A DNA stretch of 64,000 bases, taken from sequence record MN508356.1, one strand, 5' to 3'. The notes under the pieces were generated by a model. The model searched no databases and had not been told where the DNA came from. It worked only from the letters and a program-made list of their open reading frames with translations. The position numbers and the translations under genes are program-made. Below are positions 4,287 to 63,716 of the stretch, piece by piece. The stretch's first letter is position 1; each line of letters begins with the position of its first letter. The DNA comes from Acinetobacter phage VB_ApiP_XC38.

Positions 4287-6491
4287 ATGGAAATTAATTT
4301 AAACCAACCTGTTCAGGTTCAGGGTAAGTTAACGAACTGGAAAAATGAACCAGATATTCGTGATCTTAAACAGGATCTGACAGAAGCAACTAGCTACTAC
4401 TCTACCCAAACCGGGAAGATTGAACGCTGGCTAAACGTGCTTCACATGGAAGGTAGTGCTAAACCAGTTACAGCTGATGGTAAGAGTAAGGTTGCTCCTA
4501 AGCTTGTGCGTACACAAGCAGAGTGGCGTTATTCAGCCTTGTCAGAAGTATTCTTGTCTAGTACTGACTTGTTTAATGTGAATCCTGTTACATGGGAAGA
4601 CGTTAAGGCAGCAGAACAGAATGAGCTAATTCTGAATAATCAGTTTGATACTAAGATTGATAAGGTTGCTTTCATCGATAAGATGATTCGTACTTGTGTC
4701 AATGAAGGTACTGCTATTCTCCGTACTGGATGGAACCACAAAGTAGAGAAGGTTACTCAAGAAGTACCTAACTTTATGATGTATGAAGATCCTTCTTTTA
4801 TGCCTGAATTACAGCAGCATCTACAGATGATGCAACAGCAACCAGATTATTTAGAAGATCAACCTGAAGAAATCAAATTAGCTGTAGAGCAATCACAAAT
4901 TCAAGGTGTACCTATTCGTGTATTCAAACAAGGTACTCGAATGGAGACTACTGAGAAGGTAATTGCAAACCACCCAACAGTAGAAGTAGTAGACTTCACT
5001 TCAATCTATGTTGACCCTACTTGCCAAGGCGATTTAAGTAGGGCCAATTTCATTATTCATAAGTTCGAGACTTCTATGTCTGACCTAAAGAGAGATGGTC
5101 GATATAAGAACCTTGATAAAATTGTTGTTCAGAATGCAACAGTAACATCCGATATAGGAAGCCAATATGACTCATCAAACCCACCAGGTTCATTCACCTT
5201 CAAAGATGAAGCGCGTAAAAAAATGTATGCATACGAGTACTGGGGATATTACGATTTTGACGATTCTGGCATTGCTCGCCCTATGGTATGCACTTGGGTT
5301 GGTGACACGATAATCCGATTAGAAGAGAACCCTTATCCTGATAAGCAGTTCCCTTTTGTATTCATTCCATTCATGCCTGTTAAGGGATCTTTGTATGGCG
5401 AACCTGATGCTGAGTTACTGGAAGATAACCAGAAGATTAAAGGTGCTGTAACACGAGGCATCATTGATCTGTTAGCTAAGACTTCTGCAGGTCAGACTGG
5501 ATTCATGAAAGGAGCTATGGATTCTGTAAACATGCATAAGTTCCGTACTGGTCAAGACTTCGAGTTCAATCCTGGACAACACCCACAGTATGCCATTCAA
5601 ACTCAGACCTTTGCTGATATTCCAGAGTCTGCTCCATTTATGTTGCAGATGGTGAATACGGATTCTGAATCATTGACTGGTGTGCGTGCCTTTGCAGGAA
5701 CAGGTGTTACTGGTGTTAACTTAGGACAAACAGCAGAAGCTGTACGTACTGCTACAGATGCAGCAACCAAACGTGAGATTGGTATTGTTCGTAGACTTGG
5801 TAATGGTATGGTTCAAGTAGCACGTAAGTTCTTAACCATGAATGCTATGTTCTTGGAAGAGGAAGAAGTAGTACGTGTTACTAATGACAACTTTGTTCCT
5901 GTTAAACGTGATGACTTAGCAGGTAACTTTGATCTACGTATTAATATCTCTACTCCAGAGGAAGACGTAAGTAGATCTCAACAGCTTAGCTTTATGATGC
6001 AAACTCTAGGTAATAACTTACCTCCTGAATTGCCTATTAAGATTATGGCTAAGATTGCTAAGTTGCATAAGATGCCTGATCTAGCTAACTACTTGGATAA
6101 CTGGCAACCTCAGCCTGATCCAATGCAAGAAGCTCTTAAACAACTTGAGATTGCTAAGATCCAAGCAGAAACTGCATTGCTTAATGCTCAAGCTCGTGAA
6201 GCAGATGCTAAGTCATTTGTACAAGGTGCTAAGGTTGGTGTTGAACAAGCTCGTGCAGGTCAGATGCAAAGTCAGACTGACAAGAACAACTTGGACTTCT
6301 ACAACAAAGCCAATGGCATTGATCATGCAAATGCTAAAGACTTGCAACAACAGAAGTTGGATACTGATATTGTTAAGGATACCCTTAAGAATCAGAACAA
6401 CCTTGACTTGGCTAACAAGCAACATAACACTGCTTTGTTGTTAGAGCATGCTAAGGCAAGTTTGCAACCAAAAGAAAAATCTGTATCATAG
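4287..6491 (+). CDS. portal protein (N4 gp59-like by size and position)
   Basis: 734-aa ORF just downstream of terL. Q/N/K-rich coiled-coil C-terminal tail. Gene order terminase>portal>scaffold>capsid. Confidence 0.6.
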   Translation: MEINLNQPVQVQGKLTNWKNEPDIRDLKQDLTEATSYYSTQTGKIERWLNVLHMEGSAKPVTADGKSKVAPKLVRTQAEWRYSALSEVFLSSTDLFNVNPVTWEDVKAAEQNELILNNQFDTKIDKVAFIDKMIRTCVNEGTAILRTGWNHKVEKVTQEVPNFMMYEDPSFMPELQQHLQMMQQQPDYLEDQPEEIKLAVEQSQIQGVPIRVFKQGTRMETTEKVIANHPTVEVVDFTSIYVDPTCQGDLSRANFIIHKFETSMSDLKRDGRYKNLDKIVVQNATVTSDIGSQYDSSNPPGSFTFKDEARKKMYAYEYWGYYDFDDSGIARPMVCTWVGDTIIRLEENPYPDKQFPFVFIPFMPVKGSLYGEPDAELLEDNQKIKGAVTRGIIDLLAKTSAGQTGFMKGAMDSVNMHKFRTGQDFEFNPGQHPQYAIQTQTFADIPESAPFMLQMVNTDSESLTGVRAFAGTGVTGVNLGQTAEAVRTATDAATKREIGIVRRLGNGMVQVARKFLTMNAMFLEEEEVVRVTNDNFVPVKRDDLAGNFDLRINISTPEEDVSRSQQLSFMMQTLGNNLPPELPIKIMAKIAKLHKMPDLANYLDNWQPQPDPMQEALKQLEIAKIQAETALLNAQAREADAKSFVQGAKVGVEQARAGQMQSQTDKNNLDFYNKANGIDHANAKDLQQQKLDTDIVKDTLKNQNNLDLANKQHNTALLLEHAKASLQPKEKSVS

Positions 6492-11445: not shown

Positions 11446-13833
11446 ATGGGTTTACTCAAAACAAAGAAGAAGACCTACGTTAATACATCAGTGTCTCGTA
11501 TGGTTGCTGATGAAGATATCGTACCTTCTCATCGTATGGCAGTACTAGACTATGCTATGTCTCAGTCTTCTTCGTCTGTACGTTTAAGTGCTGCATCCCT
11601 ATCAGATTACTTAATCCGTGCTACTACTAATAACATCGTAGCTCGTGCACGTAAGACGCGTAGAATGGCTAAACGTGATAACTATGTGTTTGGTTTACCT
11701 GAATCTACTATGTATCAAGATGATGGTATAGATATCAAAGCAGCAGTTACTGAAGTTCTAGAAACTATGTATCCAGGTGGTGTAATAGTTAAGGATGCTT
11801 ACTTTGGGCCAATGAATAACTTCTATTTTTTACGTCCTATTCTTAATCGTAAATATGGTTATAACTATGACACTAACGAACTAGTAGAAGAATCTAGACG
11901 TATTGGTTTTAAGTGTTATATGGAATCTGCTCGTATTGAATATAGTATCTATACCGATACAGCTTTAATTGATCCAGATACTCTTATGCAATATGGGGAA
12001 TCTGCAGAAGCAGGATATACACCATTCAGAGCAGCTAATCCTAATGCAGCTCAAGTACCTTGGTCTAAAGCAGGTATATCTGATTATGATGTAGCTAAGG
12101 TAAAGGTTGTATATGCAGATGCTGAAGGTAAGAAACAAACCTATACTTTGACTATTGATTATCTAGAGTATGAAAACAGTTCCAAACCCCCTGTTAATGG
12201 TTTAGACGATAGCGATACTAATAATATTGACCCAGATGCTCAGGCTCCTATAGTAGACCAGACTCTTGATGGTCAGCATTATTACCAAGCTAACTATGAA
12301 TACATTGATAACGGTGTAGCCCATAAGGATACCTTTATATATCTATATGGTTCTGGTTTAAATACTAAGCTTGATAACCTATTTAAAGTAGGTGATAAGT
12401 TTGGTGAGTACATTCCTCGTATCTATGCTCGTTTAGGTGGTAAGAAGCTCAACGAAGATAAGGATACAGATGAGTACAAATCAATGACTCGTATCTGTAG
12501 AACTCAAGGAATGAACTGGACTAACTGGGTAGATGAAGTACATAAATCTGTAGGCTCTCTAGAGTACGTGACTCAGATTTATATGACCTACTCTGCTCCG
12601 GCTAATACTCAGGATCAGACTATTCTAGATTACCTCTTCAGGTATTTTGAAGGTATGTATGGTCAGCTTCCTGATAAAAGACCTACTACAAACTTTGGTG
12701 ATTTAAATAGGGAGTTCTTAAAGGGAGGAACTAAGTTAGGTCAGACCTATGAGATCAAGGATAACTATTACACTCAACGTATGAACCTTGATGCTCTTGG
12801 TTATGAAGATATTGTAGGTAGTATCGGTGAGGTAGGTACACTTAATTCTGAACTTAAAACCAATGTAGTTACTATAGGCAGACCCGGCAGTACTTCATCC
12901 TTCCGACCTAAATCTACAGTTAAGTGTCACTACTATCGTAAGCAGTTAACCCCTACTGTATACCGTGAATACCGAGTATACGGTTTATCTATTGTTGAGG
13001 TTGTAGCAGGTGGTAACTATACCACTGCAGCAGGTGGCGATGAAAATTTACTTATACCTTTAGACTTATCTATTGATCACGGTATATCTCCTCGTAAGAT
13101 GGAGGAACTCTACACTAAGTGTATGTATATTGTTCTTAATACACTTCAAGTAGTTAAAACTAAGTGGTATCAGACAGGTATATTCAAAGCTATTATGTTT
13201 ATTGTTGCTGTGGTGGTTTCCTATTTCTTCCCTCCCGCAGGTGTAGCAATGTGGACATGGATGGCAGCAGCTTATGCTGTTATTCAAGCTGTAGTGATAG
13301 GTTTACTGATCCAAGTTGCAGTAAAGCTATTAGTTAAACTTGGGGTAGATGTAGGTACGGCTGCAGCTGTTATTGCAGCAGTGGCTCTTGTTTATGGTGG
13401 TTTTACAGCACTTTCTAAAACTACTGGTTTAGGTGGTATGTCTACCATTCAACTTTTACAGTTATCTTCTCAAGCATTTTCTGCATCCTCGCAAGGTTAT
13501 GCATTACAAACTAAGAATGCTATTAAAGAGTTCAACTCATTAATGACTGAACTAAGCGAAGAAAACAAGGAAATTCAACGTAAAGCTAGAGAGTTAGGTA
13601 TGGGTAACCATGGGCCACTCTTATTATATGAACAACCTTATGACATTGGAATACGTATTGGTGAGTCACCAGATGACTACATTGAAAGATCGATACATAC
13701 TACAAACGTAGCTAGTACTGTATACTCGCTAATTGAAATGAACGTAGATATGGGATTACAACTCCCAACTACTACAGGAATCTTACGAAATCTTCAGGAG
13801 CAAACTGATGAACTATCCATTCTTGGGATATAA
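11446..13833 (+). CDS. virion protein with multi-helix hydrophobic (membrane-spanning) domain; candidate ejection/channel protein
   Basis: 795 aa. Residues ~560-650 form several consecutive hydrophobic helices ('AIMFIVAVVVSYFFPPAGVAMWTWMAAAYAVIQAVVIGLLIQVAVKLLV...AAVIAAVALVYGGF'). Located between structural genes and the vRNAP. Confidence 0.45.
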   Translation: MGLLKTKKKTYVNTSVSRMVADEDIVPSHRMAVLDYAMSQSSSSVRLSAASLSDYLIRATTNNIVARARKTRRMAKRDNYVFGLPESTMYQDDGIDIKAAVTEVLETMYPGGVIVKDAYFGPMNNFYFLRPILNRKYGYNYDTNELVEESRRIGFKCYMESARIEYSIYTDTALIDPDTLMQYGESAEAGYTPFRAANPNAAQVPWSKAGISDYDVAKVKVVYADAEGKKQTYTLTIDYLEYENSSKPPVNGLDDSDTNNIDPDAQAPIVDQTLDGQHYYQANYEYIDNGVAHKDTFIYLYGSGLNTKLDNLFKVGDKFGEYIPRIYARLGGKKLNEDKDTDEYKSMTRICRTQGMNWTNWVDEVHKSVGSLEYVTQIYMTYSAPANTQDQTILDYLFRYFEGMYGQLPDKRPTTNFGDLNREFLKGGTKLGQTYEIKDNYYTQRMNLDALGYEDIVGSIGEVGTLNSELKTNVVTIGRPGSTSSFRPKSTVKCHYYRKQLTPTVYREYRVYGLSIVEVVAGGNYTTAAGGDENLLIPLDLSIDHGISPRKMEELYTKCMYIVLNTLQVVKTKWYQTGIFKAIMFIVAVVVSYFFPPAGVAMWTWMAAAYAVIQAVVIGLLIQVAVKLLVKLGVDVGTAAAVIAAVALVYGGFTALSKTTGLGGMSTIQLLQLSSQAFSASSQGYALQTKNAIKEFNSLMTELSEENKEIQRKARELGMGNHGPLLLYEQPYDIGIRIGESPDDYIERSIHTTNVASTVYSLIEMNVDMGLQLPTTTGILRNLQEQTDELSILGI

Positions 13834-14308
13834 CACTCCTGGCCTTCAACTAGGTCAGGATAGCTGGATGACTGCAGCCACACCTGCATATCAACCTTTA
13901 ACTACAACCCCTACTCCTTTTGCTAATGCTGTACAGCCTTGGCAGAGTGATCTAAGTTCAGCTATGCAGAACAACACGTATAGCGCATTAGGTCTTAATA
14001 GCGATGGTTTATACACCCCTTCACCCTCTAGCGGAGGCTTAGCTAATTGGTTATCAGGTAATACAGAATTGGTTAAAGCAGGTGTTGGTTTACTAACAGG
14101 AGGTATGAGCGCATGGAATGGTTTCCAACAAAACAGACTGCTTAAGTCCAACATGAACATGCAGGCTAACCAGTTCCGTGAACAAATGGACTTATCTAAG
14201 TCTAACTACAACTCTAAGCTTGAGGACAGACAGCGTGCACGTGTAGCATCTAACCCTACAGCCTATGAGTCAGTAGATTCATACATGAAGAAATATGGAG
14301 CTAAGTAA
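13808..14308 (+). CDS. hypothetical Gly/Ser/Thr/Asn-rich protein
   Basis: 166-aa ORF overlapping the previous gene end and coupled to the next gene (ATGA overlap). Confidence 0.4.
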   Translation: MNYPFLGYNTPGLQLGQDSWMTAATPAYQPLTTTPTPFANAVQPWQSDLSSAMQNNTYSALGLNSDGLYTPSPSSGGLANWLSGNTELVKAGVGLLTGGMSAWNGFQQNRLLKSNMNMQANQFREQMDLSKSNYNSKLEDRQRARVASNPTAYESVDSYMKKYGAK

Positions 14309-57194: not shown

Positions 57195-57671
57195 TTAGTT
57201 ACCATGGTTTACGTGATAACCTAAATCATTCTCTGCCTTTTTACGGGCAGCTACTGCTTCTTCTATAGTTTTAAAACTACCAAGTGACTTAGCCTTACCT
57301 TTGTGACCAATAATCGCCCTAAACTTACCTCTTTCTGCATATACTCCTGTATAACCAGTAGTGTTGGCTTTAGAGGTAGTTTTATTTCTAGCATTTTCAG
57401 TACGAGTAACTTCTCTTAAGTTACTCCACTTATTATTGCTTCTGTCGTGATCTATGTGATCTACAAATTCAGGCAAGTAACCTTTTTGGTGTAACCATAT
57501 AAGTCTGTGAACACCTATCTGTTTACCGCATATATAAACCCTGTAATAACCCTTATCAGAAATAGAACCTACTGTTTTTCCTACCATATTGCTCATACGA
57601 TGGGTTTTCCAGGTAGCAACTCCTGTATTTGGGTCATAGTTAATACGGCTTCTGATGTAATCAGCATCCAT
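57195..57671 (-). CDS. HNH-AP2 homing endonuclease (paralog 3 of 3), immediately upstream of the DNA polymerase gene
   Basis: 'HRLIWLHQKGYLPEFVDHIDHDRSNNKWSNLREVTRTENARN' plus 'GYTGVYAERGKFRAIIGHKGKAKSLGSFKTIEEAVAARK'. Confidence 0.75.
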   Translation of the reverse strand: MDADYIRSRINYDPNTGVATWKTHRMSNMVGKTVGSISDKGYYRVYICGKQIGVHRLIWLHQKGYLPEFVDHIDHDRSNNKWSNLREVTRTENARNKTTSKANTTGYTGVYAERGKFRAIIGHKGKAKSLGSFKTIEEAVAARKKAENDLGYHVNHGN

Positions 57672-59436: not shown

Positions 59437-59489
59437 GGTTTTTCCTAATAAAAATAGCTAGACCGAAGCCTAGCTATGCAGACCTAAGC

Positions 59490-60716
59490 CTAGTTGTTGA
59501 AGTGGATTGCTGTACCGAATAAAGGTTTGAATCCAGGGTTGTCGTAGATACACCAGATCACAGGTTTCTTAGGATCTAGTCTAATGTCTTGATGTAAGTA
59601 ACCATCAGTAAGAATGATTAAAGCTTTAGACTTTTGGTCATCCTTGAATACTTCAAGTACTGGATCAATATTAGTACCACCACCACCTTTGAACTCTAAC
59701 TGCATAAAGTCACGTACAGAACAGCATTGATCGTTACCTTGTAACTGATGGTCAAACTGCATTACGTTAATCTCTTTAGGCTGAAAGTTCTTAAATACAT
59801 AAGCGATTTCAGACATGAAGCGGTTAAAGTCAGATACAGATACTGAACCAGAAGTATCAATAGCAAAGCTGATACGTCCAATACCTTCACTGTATAGTGA
59901 TGGCATTACAATATTCTGACTGATGAAGCGGCGGTTAGGTTTACGCCATGAGTAATCATTCTTGTTAATACTGAACAAGAACTTAGCAAGGATCTTAGTC
60001 CAAGGTAACTTAGGATTAAGTAAGTCCTCTAGATGACGCTCTAACTCGCCAGGGATTGTACCTGGTTTATCACCACTCATCTGTGAAATCTGAGTAGCTG
60101 AAGCAAGTAAATCCTTGTTGTGCTCTTCTGCTTGTGCAGCGGTAGGTTTAGGGATACCACCGATACCGTTACCACCGTTACCTTGGTTTCCGTCTCCATC
60201 ACCATCCTGTCCTGGATCTTGTAGATCAGGCCATGGGTTAGAAGGGCCAGTACCCTTACCTTCATCTTGCTTCTGCATTAGATCTGCGTAGATCTCATCT
60301 GCAGACATGTCACGATAGTCTACGTTGTGTAAACCACCTTTAGGCATCTTGAAGTTACGCTTAATCAACTCATCGTTAATTACATAGTCACCTGCTTTGT
60401 TCCACAGTTCATGATCACGGAATCCTTTACGAATGCCATGGTCATATACGTTATGCATGATTTCATGTAGCAGCAAGAAAATCTTCTCTTCGTTATCTAG
60501 ACTCATGAAGAAGTCTGGATTGAAGAATAGATTGATACCATCTGTAGCAGCTGTAGGTACTTCATCTGCAGTAACCCAGTGAACAGGAGACTGTAGGATA
60601 AGAGTTGAGAAGAACGCACAGTCCTTCTTCAACATTAATTTCACTTTGGCTTTAGATAAAGATTCAACTGCAGCCTGTGGTGGCGGATTAATTAGTGCCA
60701 TTTGGTTTAACTCCAA
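59490..60716 (-). CDS. VWA-domain protein with N-terminal HExxH metallopeptidase-like motif (N4 gp25-like)
   Basis: MIDAS 'ISFAIDTSGSVS'. 'LLLHEIMHNVYDHG' (HExxH). Gly/Asp/Asn-rich linker 'GQDGDGDGNQGNGGNG'. Confidence 0.65.
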   Translation of the reverse strand: MELNQMALINPPPQAAVESLSKAKVKLMLKKDCAFFSTLILQSPVHWVTADEVPTAATDGINLFFNPDFFMSLDNEEKIFLLLHEIMHNVYDHGIRKGFRDHELWNKAGDYVINDELIKRNFKMPKGGLHNVDYRDMSADEIYADLMQKQDEGKGTGPSNPWPDLQDPGQDGDGDGNQGNGGNGIGGIPKPTAAQAEEHNKDLLASATQISQMSGDKPGTIPGELERHLEDLLNPKLPWTKILAKFLFSINKNDYSWRKPNRRFISQNIVMPSLYSEGIGRISFAIDTSGSVSVSDFNRFMSEIAYVFKNFQPKEINVMQFDHQLQGNDQCCSVRDFMQLEFKGGGGTNIDPVLEVFKDDQKSKALIILTDGYLHQDIRLDPKKPVIWCIYDNPGFKPLFGTAIHFNN

Positions 60717-61142: not shown

Positions 61143-62189
61143 TTAATCAGACATTAAGTGTTTTGCGTTCTTAGTTAACCAAGCACGTACATCTGCATTA
61201 GTTACTAACATAGGATCACGGCGTGTAAAGTCAGTGAACGTACGTAACTGGAACTCAGCAGGCATACGAGCAATGAACTTCATTACTTGAGATACAGAAT
61301 CAAGTTTAGTTTGAGCACCAATAGAGCCTGACAATGCAAACAATGTAGACATTTCTTTTGGTACATCAATGTTTTCTGGATCTTTAATAATGTCTGCATA
61401 AGTAGGCAAGTTAGTAAAGTTCTTACAGAAGTTCATGAAGTTGGTTGCTACACCATCAGAGATTGCACCAGAAACTAAGTCTTTAAGCATCTTAGAGTTC
61501 ATGCCTGTAGTCTTAACGATACTATCTACCATTCCCCAAGTACGAGGACATGGGAATGTATCAGCATCACTGGTAGCATCAAAGCGATGTAAATCATCTG
61601 GTTTGAACTTAATGTATGAAGTGATTTCATGACATACACCAGTAGATAATGCCCAGTCTAACCATGCATCAACAGATACTTGAATGTTGATATGTGCCAT
61701 ACGTGATTTCAATGCTGTAGACATCTCACCAGTAACAGCAGCACCATCATCAATTAAGTTACCTGCAGATACGATACGTACCTTTTCATGGATTGGGTTC
61801 TGACCTACTTGACGATCAAGAACTAACTGATAAGCAGCTGCTTGTACAGCCATAGGAGCGTTAGTGATTTCGTCTAAGAACAGCAACCAACCTTCATAAC
61901 CATCAGGTACTTCATCAGTAGATAATGGGAATGCTTCGTTAGGCATATAGCGACTGCGATTGTCAGAGATGAACGGAATACCAGATAAGTCTGTTGGATC
62001 ACAAGTAGACAAACGGAAGTCAATAACTTTAAGTTTTAACTTGTCTGCTACTGTACGAATGATGTCAGATTTACCAATACCTGGAGAACCAAGTAGGTTT
62101 ACAGGAATATCCGCTTTTACATATTCAACAATTAATTGAGCTGCTTTATCGATTGTTACTTTCATTTTGCTTATCCTTTTCCACAACAA
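61143..62189 (-). CDS. MoxR-type AAA+ ATPase (N4 gp24-like)
   Basis: Walker A 'LLGSPGIGKSDI'. MoxR-style Walker B 'LLFLDEITNAPMAVQAAAYQLVLDRQV'. 348 aa. Confidence 0.65.
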   Translation of the reverse strand: MLWKRISKMKVTIDKAAQLIVEYVKADIPVNLLGSPGIGKSDIIRTVADKLKLKVIDFRLSTCDPTDLSGIPFISDNRSRYMPNEAFPLSTDEVPDGYEGWLLFLDEITNAPMAVQAAAYQLVLDRQVGQNPIHEKVRIVSAGNLIDDGAAVTGEMSTALKSRMAHINIQVSVDAWLDWALSTGVCHEITSYIKFKPDDLHRFDATSDADTFPCPRTWGMVDSIVKTTGMNSKMLKDLVSGAISDGVATNFMNFCKNFTNLPTYADIIKDPENIDVPKEMSTLFALSGSIGAQTKLDSVSQVMKFIARMPAEFQLRTFTDFTRRDPMLVTNADVRAWLTKNAKHLMSD

Positions 62190-62611: not shown

Positions 62612-62714
62612 GGTTTCATTCCTATGAGAATTGATTTAGGTAAGTTGCCTTACCTAAAGCAACTTTGTTTATCGCAGTTGGAGAACCCAACCACAAAGGG
62701 GCACGTAGTGCCCA

Positions 62715-63050
62715 TTAATCTAAATTAATAATAGTACAGTCTGAGATCTTAACTAAGGATCTACTCCATATACCAAGACCCATCTGTTCTGAGTCTCCTA
62801 ATTCTGGGATAGCCTTCGTATAGTTACCTAACTCAAATACTTGAAGACCTGCAACACCATCATCATGACTACGTAGAGGTGAGTGCCAGTACAAGTTGTC
62901 TTTTTTAGGCTCTGTATAGTAAGCCTATACAGTACCGTCTACATCCATTGCTATGTATCCATTTTCTAAGAACTCTGTAGGTACACTTATAGCTATACCT
63001 AAGTAGTTAATTACAGTTACCTTGGCTGCCCAAGCTACGAATAGTGACAT
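62715..63050 (-). pseudogene. gene with strong start interrupted by a single in-frame TAG after codon 41 (amber mutant, readthrough gene or sequencing error)
   Basis: AGGAG RBS plus ATG at 63050. 41 codons, then TAG (62925-62927), then 69 further in-frame sense codons with no internal start until Met ~48. The TAG sits in the hairpin 62912-62932. Confidence 0.45.
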
Positions 63051-63061
63051 GATTACTCCTA

Positions 63062-63104
63062 AATAAAAAAAGCCCTATATACCAACGGAGAGATATATAG
63101 GGCT
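63062..63104 (-). terminator. − strand rho-independent terminator (11-bp stem)
   Basis: + strand: AAAAAAAAA 'agccctatata-ccaacggagaga-tatatagggct'. On the − strand the hairpin is followed by the T-run. Confidence 0.6.
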
Positions 63105-63716
63105 ATAAATGGAGAGCATGCTCTCCGGGGGAAACTGGGTGATCCGTATCGACACAGTGGATCATTCTGCCTTTAAGTACGAGCACTCGTCTGACTTGTT
63201 ACACGCTCTATTACATGGCCAACGAAAATAAACCAGTAAGGAAGATCGTACCCGGAGGTATGACTGTATGGATACAGTCGGGTATATGCCACAAGCTAGG
63301 GCCATGAATCACATTCACTAAAGAACGTGTTACCCCTAGAGCCGGGGTCGGGCTATATTGCTCTCATTGGTGATGTGAATACCAGAGATTGCGAGTCTCT
63401 GTAAGTTTTAAGCCGAAGTCTATAACTCTCGTACTCTATGGGATTAACTGTATTAAAGCCCTTATTCAGTGTGTGTATTTCCAAAGTCTGACAGGCTGTG
63501 TCAAAGTCTTCCATACACGGTTCTGGTTCGCATATTCACATCCCAATGAGAACTTAACACGGATGTACTCTAGCACCAGGCTGAAGCATTGATCCATGTG
63601 ATTCTCATTGACCTATTTAAACCATAGGTGGTTGCATGAGCAAGGGAAGTGAGTATCTAGAATCTCTTACCATATCCGCAAACAGCGTACAGGGGCTGCA
63701 GACCTCCTGTTACTGA

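Follow-up and report, generated by a model that had tools for sequence, protein, structure and literature searches.

The interrupted gene and its surroundings

The minus strand of Acinetobacter phage VB_ApiP_XC38 (sequence record MN508356.1; hereafter XC38) carries the whole of a small gene interrupted by a single in-frame TAG, with its start codon, ribosome-binding site, stop codon and a hairpin enclosing the stop at the positions collected in Table 1. All positions refer to the window, that is, to the entire stretch of 64,000 nucleotides that was analysed. AGGAG and ATG open a frame of 41 sense codons, which is followed by TAG, 69 more sense codons and TAA at 62717–62715, giving 111 codons if TAG is read through; this arrangement, proposed in the first-pass annotation made from the letters of the window, was reproduced in every detail. 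With TAG written as an asterisk the translation reads MSLFVAWAAKVTVINYLGIAISVPTEFLENGYIAMDVDGTV*AYYTEPKKDNLYWHSPLRSHDDGVAGLQVFELGNYTKAIPELGDSEQMGLGIWSRSLVKISDCTIINLD. In all relatives the gene lies upstream of a gene for a 95-aa HTH-like protein and of a gene for a MoxR-like AAA ATPase. The ATPase of the window shares 66% identity with its counterpart in Acinetobacter phage At2 and 51% with the one in nACB1. XC38 belongs to N4-like podophages of Schitoviridae and has a genome of 79,328 bp; the window holds an ORF of 3323 aa for the virion RNA polymerase and a gene order typical of N4-like podophages. The phage infects A. pittii and its RefSeq record is NC_055823 (PMC10057805).

Table 1. Features of the interrupted gene and its flanks, with positions in the window.
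Feature	Position	Strand	Detail or basis
Strong intrinsic terminator	63071–63104	−	13-bp stem, then TTTTTTTATTT; compensatory changes in L009 and L011; other stem sequences in nACB1 and At2
Shine-Dalgarno AGGAG	63056–63060	−	5-nt spacer to ATG 63050–63048; sequence, conserved in relatives
Ancestral gene, 111 codons and TAA	62715–63050	−	translation, 24 uninterrupted homologues, synteny, dN/dS, PHROG 1972, AlphaFold
Translated 41 sense codons	62928–63050	−	ORF including TAG 62925–63050; exact-sequence look-up
Nonsense TAG, codon 42	62925–62927	−	DNA alignments with nine contigs; W/Y/F in 24/24 homologues
Perfect 8-bp hairpin CTGTATAG / GCTTA / CTATACAG	62912–62932	−	arms 62932–62925 and 62919–62912; loop 5 nt
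TTG-initiated 59-codon ORF (gp64)	62715–62894	−	C-terminal half of the ancestral gene, without Shine-Dalgarno sequence
Terminator-like hairpin GGGCAC-TAC-GTGCCC	62699–62713	−	directly 3′ of the TAA of the gene; sequence scan

The intrinsic terminator on the 5′ side of the gene ends 10 nt before AGGAG and represents the 3′ end of an upstream non-coding element. Scanning of the space between this terminator and AGGAG revealed no σ70-like promoters, so that the gene has to be expressed either via terminator readthrough or from a promoter of phage RNA polymerase outside the coverage of the scan.

In GenBank the gene is split. Exact look-ups identified the 41-aa half as hypothetical protein gp65 (QFR59752.1 / YP_010105055.1), the 59-aa half as gp64 (QFR59751.1) and the adjoining 95-aa protein as gp63; the fragments gp64 and gp65 occur on one phage contig only, which is the XC38 record, and the contig index has no entry for the 41-aa product. 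The deposited annotation thus favours two genuine small genes, for a 41-aa gp65 and for a 59-aa gp64 started from TTG 62894, but it is hardly believable that they exist as such. Every relative has one continuous gene, the 59-aa ORF coincides with the C-terminal portion of the ancestral protein, and in the protein collection gp64 falls into one cluster with intact 111-aa proteins. The sequence in front of its start codon, AAAAAAGACAAC-TTG, contains no Shine-Dalgarno element, and an in-frame ATG is also present at codon 90 of the 111-codon frame, so the earlier remark that the downstream part has no usable internal start was essentially right. Accordingly, gp64 should be regarded as a gene-caller artefact.

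Codon 42 in relatives of XC38

No near-identical sequence was retrieved with a 1.1-kb segment containing the gene from a collection of GenBank phages, in which the XC38 record is apparently missing; DNA of the relatives was drawn from Logan and ENA assemblies via protein searches. Uninterrupted frames of 82–121 aa (most of them 105–121 aa) were registered in all 24 homologues. None has a stop at codon 42, and the residue at this position is invariably aromatic (Trp in 17, Tyr in six and Phe in one). A search through approximately 5.8 billion proteins returned nine uninterrupted homologues of 107–121 aa with 37–98% identity, all having Trp42; the 90% cluster of the best match gave five further intact alleles of 110–111 aa on at least 12 contigs, and eight more distant small homologues were added by a search without word index. 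Phages nACB1 and At2 possess one uninterrupted syntenic gene of 110–120 aa with Tyr at the aligned position. The allele P0012, found in contigs L013 and L014, is the same as the XC38 product apart from W42, and among uncultured alleles of the closest clusters 14 out of 14 are intact. Thus, comparison of orthologues at codon 42, suggested in the first-pass annotation as a way to check the stop, gave a sense codon in every case. A pattern scan with the second base of the codon left free produced 0 matches in viral, metagenome and genome collections.

The dN/dS ratio among relatives was 0.17–0.51 for the whole gene, 0.16–0.40 for codons 1–41 and 0.11–0.54 for codons 43–111. Both sides of codon 42 are therefore under purifying selection in the relatives, and the frame that stays open downstream of TAG should be regarded as a remnant of a real gene rather than as evidence for readthrough.

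At the DNA level the codon is TGG in nine contigs originated from different samples (L003, L004, L005, L006, L008, L009, L011, L013 and L014). Across 2.6–6.3 kb of alignment nucleotide identity to the window is 99.6–99.7% for L004, L005 and L014, 99.0% for L003 and 98.8% for L013. The number of gaps does not exceed two, being zero in L003, L004, L005 and L014. The more distant contigs L006, L008, L009 and L011 have TGG likewise. The changed base is 62926, where the coding strand of XC38 has A instead of G of the relatives and, correspondingly, the plus strand has T instead of C. Since TGG is found in the close relatives and TAG in XC38, the difference is attributable to a single G>A transition (C>T on the plus strand) derived in XC38, and the amber mutation, listed earlier among several options, gains support from the fact that the codon is one transition away from TGG of every close relative. 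Within the gene XC38 differs from L014 by G125A and one synonymous C/T substitution at nucleotide 156 and by nothing else, while the differences from L003 are G125A and Pro/Ser at codon 58, where XC38 retains the ancestral state. The gene shows no further decay, which means that the mutation is very recent.

It might be that the real XC38 genome also has TGG and that the deposited consensus is wrong at this one base. Sequencing or assembly error would be in line with the presence of the TAG allele in one public record only, with TGG in every near-identical genome and with the change being a single substitution. Consensus substitution errors are, however, rare at normal phage sequencing coverage, while accessory genes of phage isolates often carry nonsense mutations. 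Besides, there are no indels relative to L014 over 6.3 kb, and differences of the XC38 region from its closest relatives are ordinary, mostly synonymous SNPs, so that the assembly looks clean. We consider an error at this base unlikely and suppose that the phage stock truly contains TAG and that the base was called correctly.

Protein family and predicted consequences of truncation

Search of Pfam with the intact protein gave nothing significant (CesT with E = 0.029 was below the cut-off). PHROG 1972 was matched with E = 1.3e-8, the match covering only residues 12–59 against profile positions 31–77 of 160, which indicates a common N-terminal motif but not membership over the full length. The AlphaFold model obtained with 17 homologues (pLDDT 83, pTM 0.76), which replaced a poor earlier model built from 9 sequences (pLDDT 64), represents one compact, mostly beta domain. 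Strands are predicted for residues 11–16, 19–24, 32–35, 40–44 and 68–73, residue 42 belongs to the strand 40–44, and the domain continues to residue ~108. Foldseek found no match among solved structures (best E = 1.5); its matches were uncharacterised small proteins of diverse phages only, with the best TM of 0.62. Proteins of PHROG 1972 and BFVD matches from Aeromonas phage CC2, Enterobacteria phage JenP2, Cronobacter phage GAP32 and others have the same overall fold. With PHROG 1972-type proteins, which include no member with known function, the intact protein also shares the N-terminal aromatic-rich beta motif GYIAxDxxGxVWxY..P......W. Matches of this N-terminal motif to large repeat proteins had no coherent Pfam assignment and were treated as repeat or low-complexity similarity.

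In XC38 translation would start at AGGAG/ATG and be terminated by release factor 1 at UAG. The polypeptide expected from this has 41 residues and breaks off within the central beta-sheet of the single compact domain. It is deprived of the later strands and of the conserved W55, W95 and VKISDC motifs, so that truncation removes more than 60% of the model. Judging from the predicted fold the fragment is presumably non-functional, and its ending within the central beta-sheet suggests a null allele.

Hairpin enclosing the stop codon

The 8-bp hairpin holding TAG, noticed already in the first-pass annotation, is indeed a perfect inverted repeat. TAG closes its 5′ arm, and the 3′ arm takes positions +9 to +16. 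Together with three extra flanking pairs the RNA folds with −14.6 kcal/mol (z = −4.1 versus 35-mer shuffles). Perfect 8-bp hairpins with loops of 3–8 nt are, however, encountered in the window 30 times versus 8.9 ± 3.4 in dinucleotide shuffles, and with 30 such elements the occurrence of one inside a coding region is unremarkable. The values calculated with TGG and TAG are −14.3 and −14.6 kcal/mol, respectively, and the structures are identical in 35-nt and 83-nt contexts: the mutation merely turns a G·U pair of the stem into an A-U pair. Almost equal stability with ancestral TGG means that the hairpin is older than the mutation. It arises from codons GTA TGG GCT TAC TAT ACA G (Val-Trp-Ala-Tyr-Tyr-Thr). 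In L006, L008, L009 and L011, where the protein is 55–75% identical, TGG is kept, but the Tyr-Tyr-Thr codons are different and the 3′ arm does not exist. These comparisons show that the hairpin is an incidental by-product of the coding sequence, unconserved beyond the closest lineage.

A DNA-hairpin promoter for virion RNA polymerase of the N4 type was also considered as a role for this element. Promoters of this kind have 5–7-bp stems and 3-nt loops and are located upstream of early genes; the candidate was rejected on this ground and because of the lack of hairpin conservation.

The combination of an open downstream frame with a stable hairpin may imply that UAG is read through in a programmed or structure-stimulated manner, yielding functional 111-aa protein with the hairpin as a stimulator. 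This option of the first-pass annotation did not withstand comparison with relatives and is very hard to accept. A stop at codon 42 is absent from all 24 homologues, which points to an ordinary knocked-out gene rather than to programmed readthrough, and the mutation is recent enough to explain why the downstream frame is still open. The hairpin is as stable with TGG and disappears in relatives with 55–75% identical protein. Its geometry, too, does not fit any stimulator known so far. When UAG is in the A site, approximately 11–12 following nucleotides are within the mRNA channel; as UAG belongs to one arm and the other arm has the register given above, the stem must be unwound by this moment. 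In known cases of structure-stimulated readthrough a spacer of no less than 8 nt is required (PMC13517186). There is a related idea that UAG-G is read through in A. pittii at a low but meaningful level and that a down-tuned dose of the full-length protein was selected in the isolate; we find it very improbable.

TAG as a terminator and the search for suppressor tRNA

Some phage groups recode TAG, and decoding of codon 42 by a suppressor tRNA of phage or host, or reassignment of the code, would restore the full-length product. Out of 55 non-overlapping ORFs not shorter than 70 aa in the window, 8 end with TAG, including those for the 875-aa DNA polymerase, the 734-aa portal protein, a 408-aa DUF2201/vWA-like protein and the 2479-aa ORF. 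The lengths of the TAG-ended ORFs agree with gene calls in relatives, which is in line with the earlier observation that large genes contain no other in-frame TAG and with the opinion that global recoding is unlikely. The absence of a suppressor tRNA from the window, also stated before, was supported by ARAGORN, including a run with relaxed threshold, and by Rfam: neither found any tRNA there. Contigs L003 and L014 reach 9 kb past one end of the window, and L015, which overlaps L003, reaches 9 kb past the other one, so that the genome circle is closed. No tRNA with CUA anticodon was found in these three contigs covering the rest of the circle, where approximately 15 kb of XC38 outside the window are represented by 85–99% identical relatives, not by XC38 itself; the only tRNA-related feature there is the 97-nt element described below. 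The more distant contig L008 has tRNAs for Ser and Asn and two for Met, and no suppressor among them. Taken together, the regular use of TAG as a terminator at positions matching the protein lengths of relatives, and the results of the tRNA searches, make suppression or code reassignment practically negligible as an explanation. Insertion of pyrrolysine or selenocysteine at TAG was rejected as well, because relatives have Trp, Tyr or Phe at codon 42; to our knowledge, the corresponding machinery is not expected in Acinetobacter.

A conserved tRNA-like element of 97 nt was observed beyond the window, at a distance of approximately 4.3 kb upstream of the gene, at positions 5702–5798 in L003, L004, L013 and L014 and at 5082–5178 in L008. 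It has a perfect acceptor stem and T-arm, while its fold contains no canonical D arm or anticodon stem-loop. ARAGORN designates it as ‘tRNA-???’ with a 4-base anticodon agta, and its Rfam score for tRNA-Sec is 22.6 bits versus the threshold of 47. As an amber suppressor this element was rejected on these grounds, and the lack of an anticodon arm argues against suppression too. The element may have degenerated from a tRNA or may mimic one.

Candidate non-coding RNA upstream of the gene

Directly upstream of the TAG-containing gene there is a gene-free stretch of 666 nt (63051–63716, with the minus strand as the sense one). Its nucleotide identity in relatives is 87–90% versus 55–75% amino acid identity of the adjacent protein, its invariant cores persist in nACB1 and At2, and no genes were called within it in any relative. 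In nACB1 it follows a tRNA cluster. RNAalifold predicted 202 pairs forming 27 helices. Compensatory changes were registered in 17 pairs versus 5.0 ± 1.8 in shuffles (0 of 500 reached 17) and 0–3 in slid-register controls, the count being obtained from five distinct sequences only. The stretch ends at the intrinsic terminator 63071–63104, the stem of which (helix 27) covaries in L009 and L011.

No Rfam family matched this stretch, and it was found only in the group of XC38, nACB1 and At2. The covariance model of its 3′ domain scored 119–216 bits within this group and detected nothing in syntenic regions of N4-like phages of Vibrio, Salmonella and Pseudoalteromonas. Scans with the core motifs gave 0 viral matches and 11 matches in metagenomes and genomes; none of the latter has BLAST homology, and they should therefore be considered as chance matches. 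By its conservation and covariation pattern the stretch looks like a large structured phage non-coding RNA that is so far undescribed. As a by-product of this study this possibly new RNA is more interesting than the amber allele.

Homing endonuclease polymorphisms in the vicinity

Several presence/absence differences were noticed in the same part of the genome. A free-standing HNH_3 gene (57195–57671, minus strand; Pfam E = 1e-16) is located between a gene for a 175-aa protein and the DNA polymerase gene. It is absent from otherwise 93–99% identical L003, L013, L014 and L008. Nucleotide identity changes across this site from 99.7% to ~93%, which looks like a homing or recombination boundary. 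Contig L003 has at 13584–14000 a different HNH endonuclease (HNH_3 / zf-His_Me_endon + HTH), absent from XC38, whose site corresponds to ~59461–59491 of the window, between the DUF2201/vWA-like gene and a helicase. It represents the second such polymorphism of a homing endonuclease. The gene for the MoxR-like AAA ATPase (61143–62189 of the window) is interrupted in some relatives. In L009 the segment 3974–5847 comprises an ATPase fragment of 213 aa, a NUMOD4 endonuclease gene and an ORF of 129 aa, and in the record of Pseudoalteromonas phage pYD6-A (L032 9001–10886) the ATPase is annotated as a join of two pieces with an ORF embedded between them. In part of the family the ATPase gene thus seems to contain an intron or an endonuclease insertion.

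Origin and significance of the amber allele

Most probably (we would give it a probability of about 0.8), TAG at codon 42 is a genuine, recent and spontaneous TGG>TAG mutation, fixed in the XC38 isolate or stock, which truncates a dispensable accessory protein, while the hairpin around it is incidental. In this case the 69 codons beyond TAG have escaped decay so far solely because the mutation occurred very recently. Dispensability of the gene on the isolation host would have allowed the mutant to be isolated or to take over the stock; the gene does seem dispensable for growth on this host, judged by a single criterion, which is the viability of the isolate.

A real mutation could also have been fixed by selection, for instance if the intact protein is sensed by host defence or is costly. 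Such an adaptive knock-out shares the truncation mechanism with the preferred explanation and differs from it only in the cause of fixation. The mutation is unique to the cultured isolate, all 14 uncultured alleles of the closest clusters being intact, and the lack of further decay indicates that it arose around the time of isolation; both observations are compatible with selection. Neutral drift through plaque-purification bottlenecks, however, accounts for the same facts, and matches found with PHROGs and by fold search point only to uncharacterised proteins. We therefore regard adaptive fixation as quite unlikely.

As a kind of event the amber allele is already known: it is a textbook nonsense mutation, and it has no bearing on recoding biology. 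Spontaneous truncation, if correctly recognised here, implies that plaques can grow on the isolation host without this conserved accessory gene. There is also a direct value for annotation, since gp64 and gp65 of NC_055823, the genus exemplar, should be merged and flagged as one disrupted gene, and the intact 111-aa protein is recoverable from metagenomic relatives.

Comparison with known systems

An in-frame TAG inside a phage gene is a feature that XC38 shares with TAG-recoded phages, such as some crAss-like and Lak phages. There, however, in-frame TAGs are many, TAG is avoided as a terminator in affected genes and tRNA-CUA is encoded, while in XC38 a single in-frame TAG was noted, TAG serves as an ordinary terminator and no CUA tRNA was found in the window or in the relatives covering the rest of the genome. 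Leaky UGA of Q-beta A1 and UAG of MuLV gag-pol, with a pseudoknot 8 nt downstream, resemble the locus studied here in the combination of a stop codon, an open protein-like frame and a nearby structure. In these systems the stop and its stimulator are conserved across relatives and the structure is placed at least 8 nt downstream, whereas in XC38 the stop is confined to a single record and lies inside the stem of an unconserved hairpin. From classical phage amber mutants (T4, lambda, N4 am) XC38 differs in that the mutation arose spontaneously in a wild isolate and affects a presumably non-essential accessory gene; it was not selected as conditional-lethal, and no permissive suppressor host is known for it. 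In other respects the correspondence is close: the classical mutants have the same G>A change converting a Trp codon to UAG, give a truncated product in a non-suppressing host and keep the downstream frame intact, as XC38 does.
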